From IMG/VR virus record IMGVR_UViG_3300020414_002119, positions 1 through 30,007 of that record: a DNA stretch of 30,007 nt; one strand, 5' to 3'. Source of the DNA: a virus. Lineage: Duplodnaviria > Caudoviricetes. The notes beneath the pieces are model-generated. The model was given only the letters and a program-made list of their open reading frames with translations. It had not been told where the DNA came from and ran no database searches. This document shows, one piece after another, positions 14,798 to 23,937 of the stretch. The position numbers and the translations under genes were made by a program. Numbering within the stretch: the stretch's first letter is position 1; each line of letters opens with the position of its first letter.

Positions 14798-17032
14798 GTG
14801 CAAAAGTCTAATCATCTAGAACAGATCCTCTCTGCAGCTAAAGATCGTAGAGGGGATCTTAATGTAGACACTATGATCGTTTCATCCCATCTTGCACAGA
14901 TGCGGATGTTTATGCTCCGTCGTGGGTTGGAGTTCTTTTGCGAACAAGACAGCTACGGAAAAAGGGATGAGTTTCTAGCAAAAGTTGTTGAAGACAACAT
15001 GCTGGAGATGAAGCTGGATTCAATAGTTGACTATTTCTTGTGTGACGGTCAAGGCTTGTTTTACTTCCGTCCGTCCGGCGACACCTATCAATTACTTTAC
15101 TTCCCTAAAGATAGTTATCGATGCTATCGGGATCAGGCTGGTGATATTGACACGGTTGAACTGATCTACAGCTTCAATGTACGCGGCTCTAATCAGTTGG
15201 ACATGATGCCAACTCCAGATGGCAAGAAAAAGAAGTACATCCGGCTGCGTGTCTTTAAGGACAAAATCGAACAGACAGTATCGAACGAAAAGATTGAATT
15301 TGATGATACGAGTGGTTTCTTCCAAAATATGCAACAGGGTACTACTGAAACCCTTACAAATAGCTTGGGCTTTATTCCAGCAGTTGAAATTTTCAACCAT
15401 ATGGATTGCACAGGCGAATCCACAGGTAATGGAGAGTTTGATTGGTTAGCTAATCAGATCTTGTATCACGATGAGTTGGTTAGAAACGTAAGGAAAAACC
15501 TGCGCTTCTTTGGTAATCCAACACTGATTACAAGTCGTCCGAAGCACGACATTACTGAGTCAGGGGATGAGACCACCTTCCGACCAACCATCAGTTCTCA
15601 GGCTGGGTTTGTGGGAATGGGTCAAGCAAGTACTCGGATGTCGAGCCCATTTGGAGCTCCGTCTCCACTGGATGGTCAGATCAAGGTGCCTCGTGTCATT
15701 GCCAACCTTGAGCCAACTGACCGTATCAACTACCTGACGCCAGACAGCGTGTCCGGTGATCAGAACATGTATGTCAAGCAGTACCGCTCTGAGATCCGAC
15801 TGGCCCTGGGTGGAGTTGATGACATCGATATCGGACAAGCTTCAACTGCCTATGAAATTAAAAGTCTGTATGGAAGGGTCGCTGCAACTGCAGAAAAGAA
15901 ATGTCGAGCACTATTTACTTATGGGCTATGCAGGATCTTTTCAATGATGGTCACGCATGAGGAATATCTCTTCATGACGTCCTTTGCAACTGCAAGTGGT
16001 CTTCTTAAACCAGATCCACCATTAGTAGAAGATTTCAATGGTGATGTCGAAGCTTTGTCAGAAGCTCAAGTCAAATATGGCAAGGCTATGGCTAAGTTTT
16101 CAAAGGAACGTGATGAATTATTGCGTGCTACACTTGAGTCAGGCGAAATGCCTCCTGGAATTACAGGATTAGTCCCAGACGGAAGCACTAAAGTTTCCTG
16201 GCGTTGGACTGGTGAAGTATTTGAGGAACAATCACAAGACATCCTGAATAACAGTATTGTTGTTCGGAACCTTCAAGAATTAGGCGTCGACTCAGTCGAA
16301 GCACTCAAATACCTATTCCCCAGCAAAACCGACGAAGAAAGGGCAGGCATGTTGAGTGGCTATCCATTCCGAATGGTCAAAGAAACTCAGCAGTCTCTCG
16401 GGACTTTTATAAGTCTTCTCGGCAACATGTATCAGTTGCCTCACCCTCAGACGCCCAACCTACCGCTTGCGTCTGATCCCAATCTCGATATTACTCAATT
16501 CCTATATCGATCACTTGAATTTTTACGTAAGGAGCTAAGTTACAGTGGAAGGTACAAGTCAAACACCGACGATCCAAGCCCCGTCAAGCTCAGCGATGCC
16601 GACCGCATCCGTGCCGAGCGTGGCACCGAGCCAAGGGATGTCCGCACCTATCAGTTACCAGGCCTCACCGACAACGGCTTCGGTGGACCAGGCAGCATCA
16701 ATCCCAACCAGCCAAACCCCGCAGGCTTCAGCTCCTCAGGGGAATCCATGGCAGCAGGCGTTTCAGGCGCTGAGCGCAAGTCTGAATACGAGCAGCCCAT
16801 CCCAAGCCCCGGCAGCAACTTATCAATCCCAAGTAACGCCGACACCCCAGGCGGTGTACGCGGATCCTTGGGCTTCACAGGTGCCTTCAGCCCAAATCCA
16901 GGCAGCCCCGATTTCCAGTCCCCAAGCTACAACCCGGACATTCTCGGAACAGGAAGTAGCCCATCTGGTGGGTCAGGCTCAGGCACAAACAACCGACGCG
17001 TATCTAAGTCAAGTAAGCGACGAAAGTCTTGA
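14798..17032 (+). CDS. Probable portal protein with ~160-aa low-complexity C-terminal extension
   Basis: Size and position between terminase and capsid; portal-like segments (NSLGFIPAVEIFN, LRFFGNPTL). Confidence 0.75.
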   Translation: MQKSNHLEQILSAAKDRRGDLNVDTMIVSSHLAQMRMFMLRRGLEFFCEQDSYGKRDEFLAKVVEDNMLEMKLDSIVDYFLCDGQGLFYFRPSGDTYQLLYFPKDSYRCYRDQAGDIDTVELIYSFNVRGSNQLDMMPTPDGKKKKYIRLRVFKDKIEQTVSNEKIEFDDTSGFFQNMQQGTTETLTNSLGFIPAVEIFNHMDCTGESTGNGEFDWLANQILYHDELVRNVRKNLRFFGNPTLITSRPKHDITESGDETTFRPTISSQAGFVGMGQASTRMSSPFGAPSPLDGQIKVPRVIANLEPTDRINYLTPDSVSGDQNMYVKQYRSEIRLALGGVDDIDIGQASTAYEIKSLYGRVAATAEKKCRALFTYGLCRIFSMMVTHEEYLFMTSFATASGLLKPDPPLVEDFNGDVEALSEAQVKYGKAMAKFSKERDELLRATLESGEMPPGITGLVPDGSTKVSWRWTGEVFEEQSQDILNNSIVVRNLQELGVDSVEALKYLFPSKTDEERAGMLSGYPFRMVKETQQSLGTFISLLGNMYQLPHPQTPNLPLASDPNLDITQFLYRSLEFLRKELSYSGRYKSNTDDPSPVKLSDADRIRAERGTEPRDVRTYQLPGLTDNGFGGPGSINPNQPNPAGFSSSGESMAAGVSGAERKSEYEQPIPSPGSNLSIPSNADTPGGVRGSLGFTGAFSPNPGSPDFQSPSYNPDILGTGSSPSGGSGSGTNNRRVSKSSKRRKS

Positions 17033-17531
17033 AGTTCTTCAGCACTTCGGAGCAGAAGCTCCGGCTTTGTTGAACAACTACGCTTGCGCGGTTGAAGACG
17101 CATTGATTGAGCAAGTTCAGAACTTCCAACAGCAGGAGATGGTTCTGAAAGCCATGGGCGATCAGAACGGCGCAATGAACGTAATGCTGACCGATCCCGA
17201 TGTTCTCGCTGACTATGTCAATGAGTTCTATGGTCCAGAAGGTCCTTATCCGACTGAGACTGAAGCTGAGGAAGCTACACGTCTTCAAACAGAAGCACGC
17301 GCCCAGTTCGAGTCTGAGATTCAGGCACAAGAGCGATCCACTCAAGTACCTGCTTCATTCCAGCGTCCTCAGATGGACATGCCTACTCCCGGTCGCCAGG
17401 CAAGTGCCTCTGGTGATTTCTGGGGTGGCTTCAGCCAGTTGATGGATAACAATCCTGAGCAAGCATGGCAGTATCTGTCCTCTGCTCCTAATGGAGCACT
17501 TCAGGGCAAGCTCCTGGTCCAGGATTCCTGA
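16545..17531 (+). CDS. Probable capsid scaffolding/assembly protein, 328 aa, overlapping portal by 488 nt
   Basis: AAGGAG at 16529-16534, 10 nt before the GTG; Q/P/A/S-rich N-terminus, acidic helical C-terminus; followed by a hairpin. Confidence 0.7.
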   Translation: MEGTSQTPTIQAPSSSAMPTASVPSVAPSQGMSAPISYQASPTTASVDQAASIPTSQTPQASAPQGNPWQQAFQALSASLNTSSPSQAPAATYQSQVTPTPQAVYADPWASQVPSAQIQAAPISSPQATTRTFSEQEVAHLVGQAQAQTTDAYLSQVSDESLEVLQHFGAEAPALLNNYACAVEDALIEQVQNFQQQEMVLKAMGDQNGAMNVMLTDPDVLADYVNEFYGPEGPYPTETEAEEATRLQTEARAQFESEIQAQERSTQVPASFQRPQMDMPTPGRQASASGDFWGGFSQLMDNNPEQAWQYLSSAPNGALQGKLLVQDS

Positions 17532-18470: not shown

Positions 18471-19430
18471 ATGGCTACAACAAAGATGACTGGCGATTCT
18501 GTTCGTGCATACCTCCGAGAAATCGGACGTGTGCCTCTTCTTGAGCACGCAGATGAGATCCTGCTTGGTAGACAGGTTCAGCGCTTGATGGAGCTTGAGG
18601 AAAAAAGAAAAGAGCTTTCAGAACTCCATGGTCACAGCATTGACGATCAAAAGCTTGCAGAGCACTACAACCTCGACCGAAAGAGCCTGAGGCGTGAGTT
18701 ACGGGCTGGGAAGAAAGCGAAGGACACAATGGTTACGGCGAATCTCCGTCTCGTCGTCAGTGTTGCCAAGAAATACACGAAGCGGAATATGGAGCTGCTT
18801 GACATTATTCAGGAAGGAACCATTGGCCTAGTTCGTGGGGTTGAGAAATTTGATCCAGGTCGTGGATATAAATTCAGCACTTATGCATATTGGTGGATTC
18901 GTCAAGGCATCACCAGAGCTATTGCTGAGAAGAGCAGGGCAATCCGTCTGCCAATTCACATCACAGAAAATTTGAATCGTCTGAAGAAAGCTCAGAGGGA
19001 CTTGTCTCAGAAGAATGGTTATATGCCGACAGTAGATGAGCTGGCAAAGGAGCTTCAGCTCAAGCAAGATGAGATCAAGGATCTGATGTGCAAAGCCAGG
19101 CACCCTACGTCGCTAGAGGTCAAGATTGGGGAAAACAGGGATACTGCATTGATCGATCTTCTAGAAGATGAGACGCAGCTACCAGACATGCTTTTAGAGC
19201 GTGCTTGTGTGAAGGACGATATTCATGAGCTATTGAATAGCCTGCCCGAGATGCAGTCGACAGTTCTTTGTATGAGATATGGAATTGGAGAAGAAGTACT
19301 TGAGCCGATGTCCATGACGGCCGTAGGTCAAGCGCTAAACATGAGTAGAGACCGCGTTAGAACATTAGAAAACAATGGTCTTAAAGGCCTCAAGGATCGA
19401 AGCAATTCGGTGTCTGAATACTTAGCATAA
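18471..19430 (+). CDS. Phage-encoded sigma-70 factor, RpoD/SigA family (cyanobacterial group-2-like, no region 1.1)
   Basis: Region 1.2 DSVRAYLREIGRVPLL; region 2 ANLRLVVSVAKKY...GYKFSTYAYWWIRQGITRAI; region 4 HTH MSRDRVRTLE. Confidence 0.95.
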   Translation: MATTKMTGDSVRAYLREIGRVPLLEHADEILLGRQVQRLMELEEKRKELSELHGHSIDDQKLAEHYNLDRKSLRRELRAGKKAKDTMVTANLRLVVSVAKKYTKRNMELLDIIQEGTIGLVRGVEKFDPGRGYKFSTYAYWWIRQGITRAIAEKSRAIRLPIHITENLNRLKKAQRDLSQKNGYMPTVDELAKELQLKQDEIKDLMCKARHPTSLEVKIGENRDTALIDLLEDETQLPDMLLERACVKDDIHELLNSLPEMQSTVLCMRYGIGEEVLEPMSMTAVGQALNMSRDRVRTLENNGLKGLKDRSNSVSEYLA

Positions 19431-19457: not shown

Positions 19458-20129
19458 ATGGCTGATGTCACCAATTCAATAAGTGAGTTTTACGATTCAT
19501 ATGGTGGCAGCAATCTGTCGAACCCTTCTTACTATTCCAGCAGCAAAAGACTAGATCTAAGCTCTGCAACGAACAGCATTATCAATGCCATAGGCCCAGT
19601 TATTACGACAGTGCCGTTTACGCTGAAATACGAAGATAGCGTTGGCTTATTCGGTTCAGAGAACTTCTATGTGAAAATAATGCTGGACATCATCGATACT
19701 GGCAATACACACACCATCATCAACCAATACGCAGGTCTGACAGTATCCGCCGATGCTGCACTTGAAAATACCTATTACATGGCATTTGAGGATGAAGCAT
19801 CAGACTTGACTACCGTAAATACTTATGAGCCATCAGAACGTGGAGCAGGGTTTGCCGATTTAGTTGAGCCAGTCATTAGTCTCGATTTAGAGAATCTCGG
19901 CACTGGCAATATGTATGTTGACCGCCACGTTGACGCTCGTTTATATGACAAGCATTTTAATGAGATAGATGAAGGCACTCAATTAATCGGCAAGCAGGGT
20001 GAGTTTTACCTAGGAGTGCATGCAAGGAATTCAAGACGTCTGCCATACAACATCAATGTAGTCATTGGCAACGCTGTCACATTGAGGAGTGAACTGAGTT
20101 CTGAGCTCGACAGTTCAATCCTTCCTTAG
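19458..20129 (+). CDS. Hypothetical acidic protein, 223 aa
   Basis: ORF with TAAAATAA box at 19428 and GAGG upstream. Confidence 0.75.
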   Translation: MADVTNSISEFYDSYGGSNLSNPSYYSSSKRLDLSSATNSIINAIGPVITTVPFTLKYEDSVGLFGSENFYVKIMLDIIDTGNTHTIINQYAGLTVSADAALENTYYMAFEDEASDLTTVNTYEPSERGAGFADLVEPVISLDLENLGTGNMYVDRHVDARLYDKHFNEIDEGTQLIGKQGEFYLGVHARNSRRLPYNINVVIGNAVTLRSELSSELDSSILP

Positions 20130-20517
20130 CTGTAGAGCGTGGGTCAGAAACCTTCACCCAAAACAAATTATCAAGGAAGCAGTTCATTGAGTCTCCATCC
20201 TTGAAGCCCACCATCGAGCATCCTTTTGTGCGACCGATTGGCGTCATTGGTGGTGGAAGGAAAGCAAGGGCCACAAGACTATGGACATAGGCAGAAATTG
20301 CATTCTTGCGCCCAATGCGCTGTGTCAGATTAACCGTCTGATAGCGACTGCGTTTGACCTTAGGCTTGAGAATTTGATCCTTATTGCGCTTAGTACTCTT
20401 CACTTGCCCCTGCCTATTTACATAGTATTCAATGCAACATTCATAGCCAGGAAGAGAGTGGATCGGAACCCACTCATGATTATCGATAAATTCTTGTACC
20501 ACAATATATTGGGGCAT
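20077..20517 (-). CDS. Free-standing NUMOD4/HNH homing-endonuclease-like protein, catalytic motif degenerate
   Basis: NUMOD4-like EWVPI..PGYE...YYVNRQGQVKS; VHSLVALAF; VGFKDGDSMNCFLDNLFWV in place of the canonical V[DN]HKDGNKxNNxxxNLxWV. Confidence 0.85.
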   Translation of the reverse strand: MPQYIVVQEFIDNHEWVPIHSLPGYECCIEYYVNRQGQVKSTKRNKDQILKPKVKRSRYQTVNLTQRIGRKNAISAYVHSLVALAFLPPPMTPIGRTKGCSMVGFKDGDSMNCFLDNLFWVKVSDPRSTAKEGLNCRAQNSVHSSM

Positions 20518-20595: not shown

Positions 20596-20600
20596 AGGAG
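20596..20600 (+). promoter_or_regulatory. Shine-Dalgarno site of the capsid gene
   Basis: AGGAG 10 nt before the ATG at 20611. Confidence 0.75.
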
Positions 20601-20610
20601 TTATCCATCC

Positions 20611-23274
20611 ATGTGGATCGATAGAGTGAAAGCTCTCCTGTCGATCTAAAACCGGGTGAATTCAGGGAAGCCGTAACGTATAGACGACGGTAATCCTGAG
20701 CCAAGCCCCTCACGATCTTGAGGGGAAGGTGCAGAGACTACTGGGGGAATCAAGCGTGATTCGTAAAACCAGACCAGCGCCCGGCAACAAGAAATACATA
20801 CCTTGTTGAAGAGATAGTCCGGCCCTTATCGAAAGATTTGGATACGCTGAATGATTTTCCGAAGCTCCTTGGTGCTGAACTCTACAGGCCCCACCCTGCT
20901 TACATCATTGAGATGGCAGTTGAGCCCGTAGTTGTTCACGACTTAAACGCTTGAGTCGTAACTGGGTGAATTCAGGGAACCCCTCCCAACCTTTTTAATT
21001 CGACAGAACCTAGACAAGGAAAACCGGTGACAACCGGAAGTATATTTTTTGGGGAATCCTGAGCCAAGCTCTCCCGACAGGAGAGAAGGTGCAACGACTA
21101 GGTCCCGCGTGGAAACACAGTAATGGACCCAAGAGCGCCCAGCTCCATTTTGGATGATGAGATAGTCTGAACAATACCGATGGGAAAGGTATTGAAGGTA
21201 AAGATAAAGAGCTTTACCGGTAACACAATTGCAGCAAGCAACCCGGTCAAACTGTTCAGTTGGACCGTTATCGCTTCTGGGGTAAACCTGGCACTAAGGA
21301 GTCTCGTGAGCGCACCGCAGATCAAACTCTGGGTAGCGCATCTGCTCGCAACATCGTCAAAGACAAGGTCCTGGTGACGCTAAAATCTCCATTGGCGTCA
21401 CGATAATAAAGAGGGTGAATTGCTGGAAGGCCACCATTAAAGGTTAATCAGCAGCCAAGCTTTTCTACAAGAAAGAAGGTTCAACGACTAGATCCCGAGA
21501 GGTAACTCAGTAATGGATCCACGAGCGCCCTCCACCGTAAAGGTGATGATATAGTCTGATCTATACCAATGGTAAAGGTATAGAACCAAGAGATAAAGAG
21601 CTCTTGGGATAACAACAATGCAAGGAGTACACCGGTCCTGCTGATTCTCGCGATTCTGCACAACCATCCACCTTCAAGGTGGCCCGCGAAACTCTGATCA
21701 CTGCTCAGCGTCTGCTTCTGGACACTGGCAACCTCAACGTCTTCCACCAGTCAATCGGTTCTCTGACACTGCTGGACGACTACCGTCGCTGGCGTAACAC
21801 TGATTGCGCCGCCATTGTGTGAGCAATGGGCAATAACTGGGTGAATTCAGGGAACCCCACCATCAACGGGGAATCCTGAGCCAAGCCAGGCCAACAGCCT
21901 GGAAGGTGCAACGACTAGATCCCGAGAGGAAACTCAGTAATGGATCCACGAGTGCCCAGCATCTCAAGTCTGAGATGAAGATATAGTCTGACCTATAGCG
22001 ATGGCAAAGCTATAGAACCAAGAGATAAAGAGCTTTTGGGATAACATTTGGATCGTGTGTTCGCCAACGAACTGCTTAAGGCCGAAGCCAACGGCCAAGC
22101 TGACTCTGACAAAGGTGGTTATTACCTGCCTGGTGGCAAAGCCAAAGGCGCAACCGGTGGCACCCTCGGTGTTACTTATGCCTCTGGTGAATCCGCCAAG
22201 TTCAGCGTCAAAACTGACCTCCTCGAAGTGGTCAAGGACATGCGTAAGCGCAACGTCCCCACTTTCGCTTAATACCATGGGCGCTTACTTGAGTAATCAA
22301 GTAATGAGCATTCCGTGAATTGCTGGAACCCCTCCATCACTATGGGGAATCAGCAGCCAAGCCAGACCAACAGTCTGGAAGGTTCAACGACTAGGCAAGC
22401 GTGGAAACACGACGAGCCCACGAGCGCGGAACACCCTACTGGGGTGAAGATATAGTCTGAACTACACCGATGGAAAAGGTATAGAAGGAGCGGATAAAGA
22501 GCCGCTTCGATAACAATTTGGATGGTTATTACCGCTGCATCGTGGATCCGACCGCGATGATGCATCTTCGCCAAGACAGCGACTTCCGTAGTGATATTGC
22601 GGCCTTAGTTGGTAACAACTAAGTGAATAAAAGGGTGAATTGCTGGAACCCCTTCAATACATTGGGGAATCAGCAGCCAAGCCAGACCGACAGTCTGGAA
22701 GGTTCAACGACTAGAAGCCGAGAGGAAACTCAGTAATGCTTCCACGAGTGCCCTTCATCCGTTATGGATGGTGATATAGTCTGAACTCAATCGATGAGAA
22801 AGATTGAGAGCCAAGAGATAAAGAACTCTTGGGATAACAATATTGGAAATCGCTCGTTATCCTGGCGCTGGAATGGTGAATCCGATGAACCCCGCTGCGG
22901 GTCCTTCGGCTAACTTCTTCCAAGGTATGGGTCCTGCTTACGGCCAGGCTGGTTTCGTAGCAGGCGCTCCACAAATGCCAACCGGATTTCTCTTCGAAGG
23001 CGTCAGGTGGTTCGAATCTACGAATTTACCTGAAACCTCCTACAACCTCGTTGTGACCTCTGCTTCCTCTAGCGCTGCTGATTACGGTGCCGCTCAGTTG
23101 ATCTTCTTTGGTCCTCAGGCTGTTGGCGTTGGTATTGGTGGTAACAACGCTCAGATTCTGCTCAACAACAACGATGATTTCTCTCGTTTTGTGATCATGA
23201 TCTGGTCCCTGTTTGCTGGCTTTGAAAGTCTGAATTCAGACTTCGTCACAGTCGGATACTCTTTTGTTTATTGA
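20611..23274 (+). CDS. Major capsid protein, 382 aa after splicing; join(20611..20622,20850..20944,21232..21381,21621..21795,22051..22269,22521..22589,22846..23274)
   Basis: Exons of 12+95+150+175+219+69+429 = 1149 nt give a stop-free frame: MWID|NDFPKLLGAELYRPHP...VVHDF|SKQPGQTVQLDRYRFWG...VLVTL|KEYTGPAD...YRRWR|DRVFANE...NVPTFA|DGYYRCIVDPTAMMHLRQDSDFR|EIARY...GFLFEGVRWFESTN...GYSFVY. Capsid identity comes from size, position, strong SD and HK97-fold-like motifs (GQTVQL, FEGVRWFESTN). Confidence 0.9.
20623..20849 (+). ncRNA. Group I intron 1 (227 nt, phase 0)
   Basis: P1 GAUCGAU/GUCGAUC with U.G; P3 CCGGGUG/CGCCCGG; P4 UUCAGG/CCUGAG; P7 GACUA/UAGUC; terminal G. Confidence 0.93.
20945..21231 (+). 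ncRNA. Group I intron 2 (287 nt, phase 2)
   Basis: P1 ACGACUU/GAGUCGU; P3 CUGGGUG/CGCCCAG; P4 UUCAGG/CCUGAG; P7 GACUA/UAGUC; ends CAAUUG. Confidence 0.93.
21382..21620 (+). ncRNA. Group I intron 3 (239 nt, phase 2)
   Basis: P1 GUGACGCU/GGCGUCAC; P3 GAGGGUG/CGCCCUC; P4 UUGCUG/CAGCAG; P7 GACUA/UAGUC; ends CAAUG. Confidence 0.93.
21796..22050 (+). ncRNA. Group I intron 4 (255 nt, phase 0)
   Basis: P1 GGCGU/GCGCC; P3 CUGGGUG/UGCCCAG; P4 UUCAGG/CCUGAG; P7; ends CAUUUG. Confidence 0.93.
22270..22520 (+). ncRNA. Group I intron 5 (251 nt; boundaries may be shifted by +1)
   Basis: P1 CGCU/GGCG; P3 UUCCGUG/CGCGGAA; P4 UUGCUG/CAGCAG; P7; ends CAAUUUG. Confidence 0.9.
22590..22845 (+). ncRNA. Group I intron 6 (256 nt, phase 0)
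   Basis: P1 CCGU/GCGG; P10 AGUGAUAUU with exon GAAAUCGCU; P3 AAGGGUG/UGCCCUU; P4 UUGCUG/CAGCAG; P7; ends AAUAUUG. Confidence 0.93.
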
Positions 23275-23290
23275 TAGGAGGTATCTAATA

Positions 23291-23890
23291 ATGTCTGTGA
23301 TTTTCCCCGGTAACTACGTTACCCATCTGAACGCATATAACAACCAGGGCGTTCTCTCCATCCCCGGTATCGAGTTCTACCGCCTCGTCGGTGCAGCTGT
23401 GATTCCGGCAACCACTGCCGCCTCGGTTCAGACCCTCACTCTGAAGGTTCTGTCCCCAGACATGCGTGGTGACGACAAGCCTCGTGCTGACAAGAACCTT
23501 GTCATCCCAACTGGTGCTGCTATCTATCGCACTGCTATCAGCACTGTGAACCTGTCCGCACAGGGTGCATCTGACACTCTGACCGTGACTGGCGTCTCTC
23601 CTGCTGCAGTACTGACTGCTGCGAACAACCTGTTCCCAGCCGCTGGTGCAACCACGACCTTCAACGGTCTTGGTGATGCAGGTGGTAGTGCATCCATCAC
23701 CCGTCTTGCTTCTGACACCACCGTGACTGCTGTCACTGGTGCTAGCGGCCTGACTGTGGTTGAGCCTAAGTCTGGTGCAGAAGGCGAAAGCCAGTCTGCC
23801 GTCATTGTTGAAGTTTGCTTCTTCATGGACGGTGGTGCTCCTGATGCAGGTGATGTCCACCTCCCCTACAAAGTTGCAGCTGGCGCTTGA
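23291..23890 (+). CDS. Probable capsid decoration / minor capsid protein, 199 aa
   Basis: AGGAGGT at 23276-23282 supports the ATG at 23291 (track start 23264); A/T/V/G-rich; lies between the capsid gene and the terminator. Confidence 0.7.
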   Translation: MSVIFPGNYVTHLNAYNNQGVLSIPGIEFYRLVGAAVIPATTAASVQTLTLKVLSPDMRGDDKPRADKNLVIPTGAAIYRTAISTVNLSAQGASDTLTVTGVSPAAVLTAANNLFPAAGATTTFNGLGDAGGSASITRLASDTTVTAVTGASGLTVVEPKSGAEGESQSAVIVEVCFFMDGGAPDAGDVHLPYKVAAGA

Positions 23891-23913
23891 TCGTCATAGT
23901 CAACTTGTGAATG

Positions 23914-23937
23914 AAGCGTCCTTCGGGGCGCTTTTTT
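23914..23937 (+). terminator. Rho-independent terminator of the capsid operon
   Basis: AAGCGTCC-TTCG-GGGCGCTT followed by TTTT; cUUCGg tetraloop. Confidence 0.88.

Follow-up and report, generated by a model that had tools for sequence, protein, structure and literature searches.

Six group I introns without open reading frames in the predicted major capsid gene of an S-EIV1-like virus, and related introns ahead of other phage capsid exons

Introduction

A capsid-gene intron is known from a Chlorella virus. In phages, the textbook view places group I introns in DNA-metabolism genes, a bias described as unexplained (PMC12350094). Mycobacteriophage LittleE shows one probable group I intron in the major capsid gene, whose splicing was shown by reverse transcription PCR (RT-PCR) and protein sequencing (Pope et al., 2013; PMC3706429); high-level capsid expression therefore tolerates an intron. 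The same article cites a capsid-gene intron in the lactococcal phage Tuc2009. Here we describe a stretch of viral DNA of 30,007 nucleotides (nt) (Duplodnaviria; Caudoviricetes; positions 1 to 30,007 of IMG/VR record IMGVR_UViG_3300020414_002119), hereafter the window, in which a predicted major capsid gene is interrupted by six group I introns that lack open reading frames (ORFs). These introns are probably selfish self-splicing passengers, piled up by endonuclease homing and by recombination among co-infecting relatives, and not regulatory elements.

LittleE resembles the window in the host gene, in the U before the intron and in the G at its end, but has a single intron with an antisense endonuclease gene, whereas the window has six ORF-less introns and its capsid family 31 to 36 intron sites. 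The crAss-like Delta and Zeta phages (Yutin et al., 2021; PMC7886860) also show group I introns in the major capsid protein (MCP) gene, which is in five fragments in one Zeta phage. These introns came to light by way of endonuclease domains, in genomes with many infested genes, whereas the ORF-less introns of the 30-kb window are confined to the capsid gene and its terminase and portal genes are intact. The Jug gut jumbo phages (PMC12880540) contain many short group I introns (~206 nt) with metatranscriptome-supported splicing, but they have 18.5 introns per genome, distributed over terL, nrdD and other genes, and the available passages of that article describe no concentration in capsid genes. 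The introns of Bastillevirinae and Twort are IA-type, like those of the window, with up to three per gene and with exon skipping, and the product of Twort orf142 is a structural (tail tube) protein; however, most are in DNA polymerase, terminase and ribonucleotide reductase (RNR) genes, and 32 of 45 carry a nuclease (PMC11878797). In cyanophages, the psbA intron of S-PM2 is likewise a small ORF-less group I intron (PMC5931967; PMC3984707), and the psbA intron of S-CBWM1 is 72% alike to intron 4 of the window over 150 nt. The S-PM2 intron is single and is accompanied by an active free-standing nuclease, F-CphI, whereas the nuclease encoded beside the capsid gene of the window appears from its motif to be inactive and shows no link to introns.

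Synechococcus phage S-EIV1 (KJ410740), unlike the window, has an intronless capsid gene, and the main text of a preprint on an S-EIV1-related marine lineage (bioRxiv 10.1101/325100) does not contain the word 'intron'. The available passages of four other articles (PMC10286775, PMC10580990, PMC3653736 and PMC11835236) contain nothing on capsid introns. A literature search that covered few subscription journals returned no publication describing six or more introns within a single phage gene, introns of S-EIV1-like capsid genes or an intron clade biased towards capsid genes. The components are known singly, and the case of the window is extreme in having six introns in one capsid gene. A preliminary description of this locus, made by a model from its letters, had already called it extreme; the six introns bear this out, while capsid-gene introns are less unprecedented than was implied there (PMC3706429; PMC7886860). 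New here is that related introns are also found ahead of capsid exons in unrelated phage families.

Structure of the interrupted capsid gene

The capsid gene is located at 20611..23274 on the + strand, as are all its parts, and a Shine-Dalgarno-like AGGAG (20596..20600, + strand) is found 10 nt before its ATG. Exon 1 (20611..20622) contains four codons and is followed, after codon 4 (site 4.0), by intron 1 (20623..20849; 227 nt; Rfam score 101.5 bits). Exon 2 (20850..20944; 95 nt) ends inside codon 36 at intron 2 (site 35.2; 20945..21231; 287 nt; 51.7 bits), and exon 3 (21232..21381; 150 nt) ends inside codon 86 at intron 3 (site 85.2; 21382..21620; 239 nt; 76.9 bits). The other three introns lie between codons: intron 4 (21796..22050; 255 nt; 71 bits) after codon 144 (site 144.0), behind exon 4 (21621..21795; 175 nt); intron 5 (22270..22520; 251 nt; 72 bits) after codon 217 (site 217.0), behind exon 5 (22051..22269; 219 nt); and intron 6 (22590..22845; 256 nt; 70.9 bits) after codon 240 (site 240.0), behind exon 6 (22521..22589; 69 nt). 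Exon 7 (22846..23274) contains 429 nt including the stop codon. The lengths of exons 3, 5 and 6 are divisible by three, and their skipping would leave the reading frame intact. All six inserts are above the gathering score of 50 of the Rfam model RF00028 (51.7-101.5 bits, E 1e-10 to 2e-25), whose matches are all within 20600-22808, with nothing else notable across the 30-kb window. The introns sum to 1515 of 2664 nt (56.9%), exactly as the preliminary description had counted them. Each is preceded by a T and has a G as last base, and the seven joined exons give 1149 nt, i.e., the clean frame of 382 codons plus stop that had been announced.

The junctions were checked by a spliced alignment of the raw DNA (dynamic programme), in which the only constraints were T before the intron, G at its end and a length of at least 170 nt. 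The intronless proteins of the related loci L003 and L006 and of S-EIV1, each used alone, gave the identical six junctions with base precision. Homologues align collinearly through every junction, without gaps or nearly so at 89-96%, the outcome of an alignment to intronless homologues that had been proposed as a check. The internal guides are matched to their sites, with 9, 7, 8, 6, 4 and 4 exon base pairs (bp) in the P1 of introns 1 to 6 and a terminal U.G pair. The statement that each insert follows a U paired with a G of its guide and ends in G held, with only 4 exon bp in introns 5 and 6, whose P1s are no better than mismatched exon-intron combinations (up to 6 bp). An adjacent P10 is clear for intron 4 only. 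The longest stop-free stretch is 95 codons in intron 2 and 45-59 codons in the other five, and intron 5 opens with an in-frame stop; because these stretches are short compared with the 153-348 codons of long ORF-bearing relatives, the six introns are classified as ORF-less, in agreement with the first reading of the locus. No intron-encoded endonuclease was found within the six introns of the window.

The spliced product shows 82-96% identity to the 80 nearest IMG/VR loci, mostly at full length and gap-free, and is 67% identical to the capsid protein of S-EIV1, its only cultured match. The intronless protein of L003, 96% identical to the product of the window, matches the PHROG 1357 major head protein (E 4.7e-19), and the listed Foldseek matches of its AlphaFold model (pLDDT 78) are all phage capsids, with cyanophages Pan3 and P-SCSP1u at the top (E 2e-12 and 4e-12). 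A PDB sequence search gave no match. By profile and structural model, the 382-amino acid (aa) product is predicted to be the HK97-fold major capsid protein of an S-EIV1-like phage, and the capsid identity proposed earlier stands. A plain ORF scan of the gene gives only fragments of 74 and 143 aa, so that standard gene callers would miss it, as had been anticipated; in the profile search, the last exon alone matches the capsid family (PHROG 1357 major head, E 2e-4). Gene calling breaks capsid genes split by introns into pieces, and they are lost from virus surveys based on capsids. As a separate observation, the major capsid gene of S-EIV1 (KJ410740; L081:8290-9420) is mostly unannotated, and an opposite-strand ORF and a C-terminal fragment are recorded there.

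Ribozyme fold of the introns

Helices were tallied in 98 distinct short introns that belong to the main clade of the capsid family, with registers hand-set on intron 4. Core motifs had served in part to choose these loci, so that conservation is inflated and compensatory changes are not. The core of intron 1 was judged from the Rfam alignment. Paired cells were 582/588 in P3, 588/588 in P4, 196/196 in P6, 490/490 in P7, 466/490 in P7.1, 370/392 in P8 and 672/684 in P9.1, and every tallied helix shows two-sided changes, so the compensatory changes initially noticed in P3, P4 and P7 extend over the 98 introns. The G-C of the guanosine site, which is the first P7 pair, is invariant (98/98). The extra hairpin noticed between P7 and P3' is confirmed. 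Its P7.1 stem, with two-sided changes in 5/5 pairs, is capped by a second stem with mostly a GNRA loop, forming one stacked hairpin and not two side by side. Subgroup IA is defined by one or more extra helices between P7 and P3'. Helices P7.1 and P7.2 are named in PMC3984707, and the six introns are of group IA type, the subgroup first suggested for them.

Intron 1 represents a separate lineage, with 48-54% core identity to the other five, which are 69-78% alike. Each of the six introns of the window has a stop in the exon frame before its core. Such a stop is found in 153/159 introns, versus 186/318 for the other frames, and at 29/30 sites, the pattern expected if ribosomes have to be kept off the folding core. 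The ribozyme cores appear to be under selection, and the introns are predicted to excise themselves from the late mRNA. In this case, guanosine would attack each U.G splice site, the exons would be ligated, and the full capsid protein would be produced only from mRNA freed of all six introns.

Two further observations concern the cores. The introns of L351, L394, L431 (site 285) and L433 (site 88.1) have GAUCA/UGAUC as P7 instead of GACUA/UAGUC, a double compensatory change next to the guanosine site. In the window, the ~60-nt P5-loop insertion of intron 2 (20985-21050) scores as terminator-like, with a T-rich run behind a small hairpin.

Intron distribution in the capsid family

A sample in which loci were picked only by last-exon similarity contains 70 full-length genes: 64 are intronless and six have one intron, four of them after codon 4 and two after codon 6. 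The high-intron tail was supplied by scans with intron motifs. A P4-P6 pattern gave 119 loci, of which 25 belong to the S-EIV1-like capsid family, and a P7.1-module pattern gave 167, of which 107 belong to this family (44/74 viral and 63/93 metagenome loci). A P9 pattern gave few loci of the family, and scans targeted to junctions, with patterns that were too strict, gave one locus for site 144 and none for site 217. In total, 125 loci represent 73 distinct alleles. These alleles carry 168 introns, for which 36 sites were called; five of the sites are doubtful and were dropped, leaving 31, and 12 loci were excluded because they were duplicates, fragmentary or too distant. Of the 52 intron-bearing alleles with a full-length gene, 14 have one intron, 13 have two, 14 have three, seven have four and two have five. 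The highest loads are the six introns of the window and eight in L418 (L418:2987-6174, on the same contig as L417 and L419), all eight ORF-less and above the Rfam cut-off.

All six sites of the window recur in other alleles. Intron sets differ freely between near-identical alleles, sometimes by single introns, and no fixed set exists over the 73 alleles. In ~377 kb of flanks outside the capsid gene of the family no core motifs were found, except seven matches at truncated gene ends. The capsid gene is here a family-wide intron sink, much as rDNA is for eukaryotic group I introns. In the deep alignment, the protein stretches with intron sites show higher conservation (0.42 vs 0.35, p 0.001), and homing introns have been reported at conserved sites (PMC2814812). 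This supports in part the earlier suggestion that the introns break up conserved nuclease targets.

These loads bear on the idea, put forward in the preliminary description, of a timing or GTP/Mg2+-dependent gate, i.e., an intron array tuned so that six splicing events sense light, GTP, Mg2+ or translation to control capsid synthesis. Such a gate would suit the 9-bp P1 of intron 1, which spans codons 2-4 beside the ribosome binding site, the early end of translation on retention of any single intron (at codon 13, 39, 94, 153, 218 or 251), and the finding that the splicing ratio of the psbA intron in S-PM2d depends on light (PMC5931967). The excess of intronless genes among full-length relatives, none of which has more than one intron in the sample picked by exon similarity, the variable sets and the single-intron differences between near-identical alleles speak against it, and endonuclease-bearing versions occur at three of the sites (see below). 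We regard the gate as quite improbable and no longer adopt it as the main explanation; a side effect on timing, without selection for it, is possible. The series from zero to eight introns offers a natural test of selfish homing against regulation, and of the cost of serial splicing.

Endonucleases, transfer tracts and mosaic introns

Among the 168 introns, 37 are long and contain an ORF. The ORFs of five long introns were tested: four encode LAGLIDADG_2 and one an antisense HNH_3 domain. Long and short forms both occur at sites 4.0, 35.2 and 144.0, which are three of the six sites of the window. Long introns with a LAGLIDADG-like ORF on the opposite strand were also observed in L437 (3127-3981 and 4565-5533) and at sites 139.1, 285, 292.2 and 30.2.

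Two relatives share near-identical introns with the window. The exons of L470 are 78% identical to those of the window, while intron 1 differs at 2/227 nt and the first 107 exon bases show seven differences versus 248/1039 elsewhere. In L418, intron 4 is identical to that of the window (0 differences) and intron 6 differs at 1 nt; both sit in a 338-nt tract with four differences versus 85/808 elsewhere, and L418 lacks intron 5, mid-tract between the two shared introns. An intron core has its nearest neighbour at the same site in 94/115 cases and never in the same genome; the six introns are therefore not local duplications. Intron 2 of the window is a mosaic: its 5' end and its P3 are those of a site-35 intron, its P4-to-P7.1 part is of the L418 site-48 type, and the shared segment includes the P5-loop insertion (63 nt, three mismatches). 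Within-genome homogenisation of intron modules was tested on the 96/131 short introns that could be parsed: P6a gave 2/74 pairs (p 0.24) and P7.1 gave 8/74 (p 0.09). Since it is not significant, concerted evolution is not claimed.

A free-standing nuclease might also drive the introns, by collaborative homing as with F-CphI and the psbA intron. The candidate is a divergent NUMOD4/HNH-like ORF of 146 aa (20077..20517, - strand; PHROG HNH E 1e-16; Pfam NUMOD4), which lies ~95 nt upstream of the capsid start in a head-to-head arrangement that is fixed across the family. This gene is not linked to intron presence, its homologues being found in 67/80 loci chosen by exon similarity, which are mostly intronless. 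In the sub-lineage that comprises the window, L418, L470, L423 and the intronless L003, Phe stands in place of the His of its usual H-x-D-G motif, a residue with a role in HNH nucleases. It is also implausible that one nuclease serves six unrelated sites. Neither linkage nor motif agrees with a collaborative homing pair, and as a conserved family gene with a replaced motif His this ORF is very unlikely to be the driver.

Related introns in unrelated capsid genes

The 60 P7.1-module loci outside the S-EIV1-like family, 71-85% identical to the introns of the window, represent 34 distinct introns, and the downstream frame could be tested for 30. It matches major head proteins in 24 (PHROG 247 or T7-like 267) and nothing in six, so all 24 assigned frames are capsid frames. 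The T7-like capsid carriers are L361, L367, L385, L401, L391 and L339, and the PHROG 247 carriers are L324, L345, L335 and L449. In the P4-P6 control (60 tested of 73 distinct), 17/37 assigned frames are capsid and the others include psbA (six), helicase, RNR and rIIA; in the broader P9 control (59 of 93 frames tested), 7/39 are capsid. These counts are subject to three caveats: the patterns derive from introns of the window, rows are non-independent, and the frame after an intron may be the next gene. The scan pattern itself carries no host-gene information, and terminase and portal are viral hallmarks equal to the capsid. The intron module had no match in genome contigs. A capsid bias of this intron clade is likely, whatever the way in which it spreads, and the kin introns in unrelated capsid families suggest, from their sequences, a clade specialised in capsid genes. 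This one intron clade clusters in the structural gene with the highest expression, across at least three unrelated capsid families and with zero to eight introns per allele.

These data also bear on spread without endonuclease, by reverse splicing into abundant capsid mRNA and rare copying back to DNA, which would account for many sites and for the capsid bias. The 31-36 sites in one 1.15-kb gene, the kin introns in unrelated capsid families, the flanks almost free of core motifs and the fact that same-site introns are not always one clade are in its favour; direct support in print was not found. We consider it unlikely as the explanation of the six introns. As a wider and tentative proposal, which we think doubtful though less so, a capsid-specialist clade of small group IA introns may move between unrelated families that share hosts, fill dozens of sites, swap cores while keeping guides, and reach sites endonuclease-free through reverse splicing into abundant late mRNA.

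Origin of the introns

An origin as selfish passengers is preferred over a control switch because relatives carry zero to eight introns and kin sit in unrelated capsid genes. Homing, endonuclease loss and recombination fit better than a GTP/Mg2+ gate, given the endonuclease versions at the same sites and the near-identical introns in conversion tracts. The LAGLIDADG or HNH genes that relatives carry in introns at three of the six sites would encode endonucleases that cut intronless alleles in mixed infections, and the intron would be copied in with flanking exon. The endonuclease gene would later be deleted, in the direction of gain and loss that we infer, and the small ribozyme would persist since only its exact loss is tolerated and the site is shielded from cutting. 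Recombination would stack small introns from different donors in one allele and occasionally swap core segments between sites.

Several points weigh against the homing account. Homing alone explains neither new sites nor capsid preference, and plain recombination also yields such tracts, which were delimited after seeing the data, so that their p-values (8e-6 and 2e-9) are inflated. Endonuclease-bearing versions were not found at sites 85.2, 217.0 and 240.0, where two, three and two introns were seen. Among close relatives, nucleotides at intron sites are no more conserved than elsewhere (p 0.13). Finally, RNA runs X21 and X19, the check by junction reads that the preliminary description had proposed, contain no exon-junction evidence for the window allele, and X21 gave nothing. 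The intron series and the capsid clade make the question of intron placement, and the spread of ORF-less introns to new sites, directly testable.

RNA data and assembly

X19 contigs cover the exons, joined at or near the predicted junctions, but carry several other letters. Runs with a small share of the sequence words of the window were set aside. These joined contigs were rejected as evidence of splicing: the same joined forms occur in DNA runs X3 and X11 and, together with the divergent letters, indicate that they are most likely intronless relatives.

An assembly error caused by repeated intron sequence, or a dead gene with decayed introns, would agree with the missing RNA support, and the six introns share stretches of up to 52 nt, which can confuse assemblers. 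However, nine runs from three studies contain at least half of the words of the window (one of them may be its source), each of the six introns is spanned by contigs of X3 with 0-1 differences, and introns 1, 3, 4 and 5 recur nearly unchanged in X11 (2024, another study). One X11 contig with intron 5 jumps from 22589 to 22846, i.e., lacks intron 6, in a single contig with 30 letters on its short side. L404 repeats introns 1-3, the frame and cores are intact, and no other capsid gene was found in the 30-kb window. An artefact or pseudogene is, on these data, highly improbable.

Genomic setting

The window also encodes an uninterrupted terminase, a portal-like protein, a sigma factor and a lysozyme. 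The portal-like protein is 49.5% identical to that of S-EIV1, its sole cultured match, and from the kinship with S-EIV1 a cyanobacterial host is likely. The search with the sigma factor was uninformative on the host, and capsid matches among genome contigs, in 12 contigs of metagenome-assembled genomes of mixed taxa that are probably misbinned phage, give no host information. The DNA runs that best match the window sequence are marine metagenomes. Downstream of the capsid gene there is an ORF of 199 aa (23291..23890, + strand; ORF scan), likely cotranscribed, with no family match in the profile searches, and a terminator-like hairpin (23913..23934, + strand; consensus match only) follows both genes. 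Upstream, a full RpoD-type sigma-70 factor (regions 1.2-4) is encoded at 18471-19430, between a scaffold-like gene and the capsid gene. The portal-like ORF (14798-17032, 744 aa) and the scaffold-like ORF (16545-17531, 328 aa) overlap by ~490 nt in different frames. The contig start (1-1000) is purine-rich, with a repeated segment, a GC content of 56% and an AT skew of 0.31, and is perhaps a genome end or an origin.

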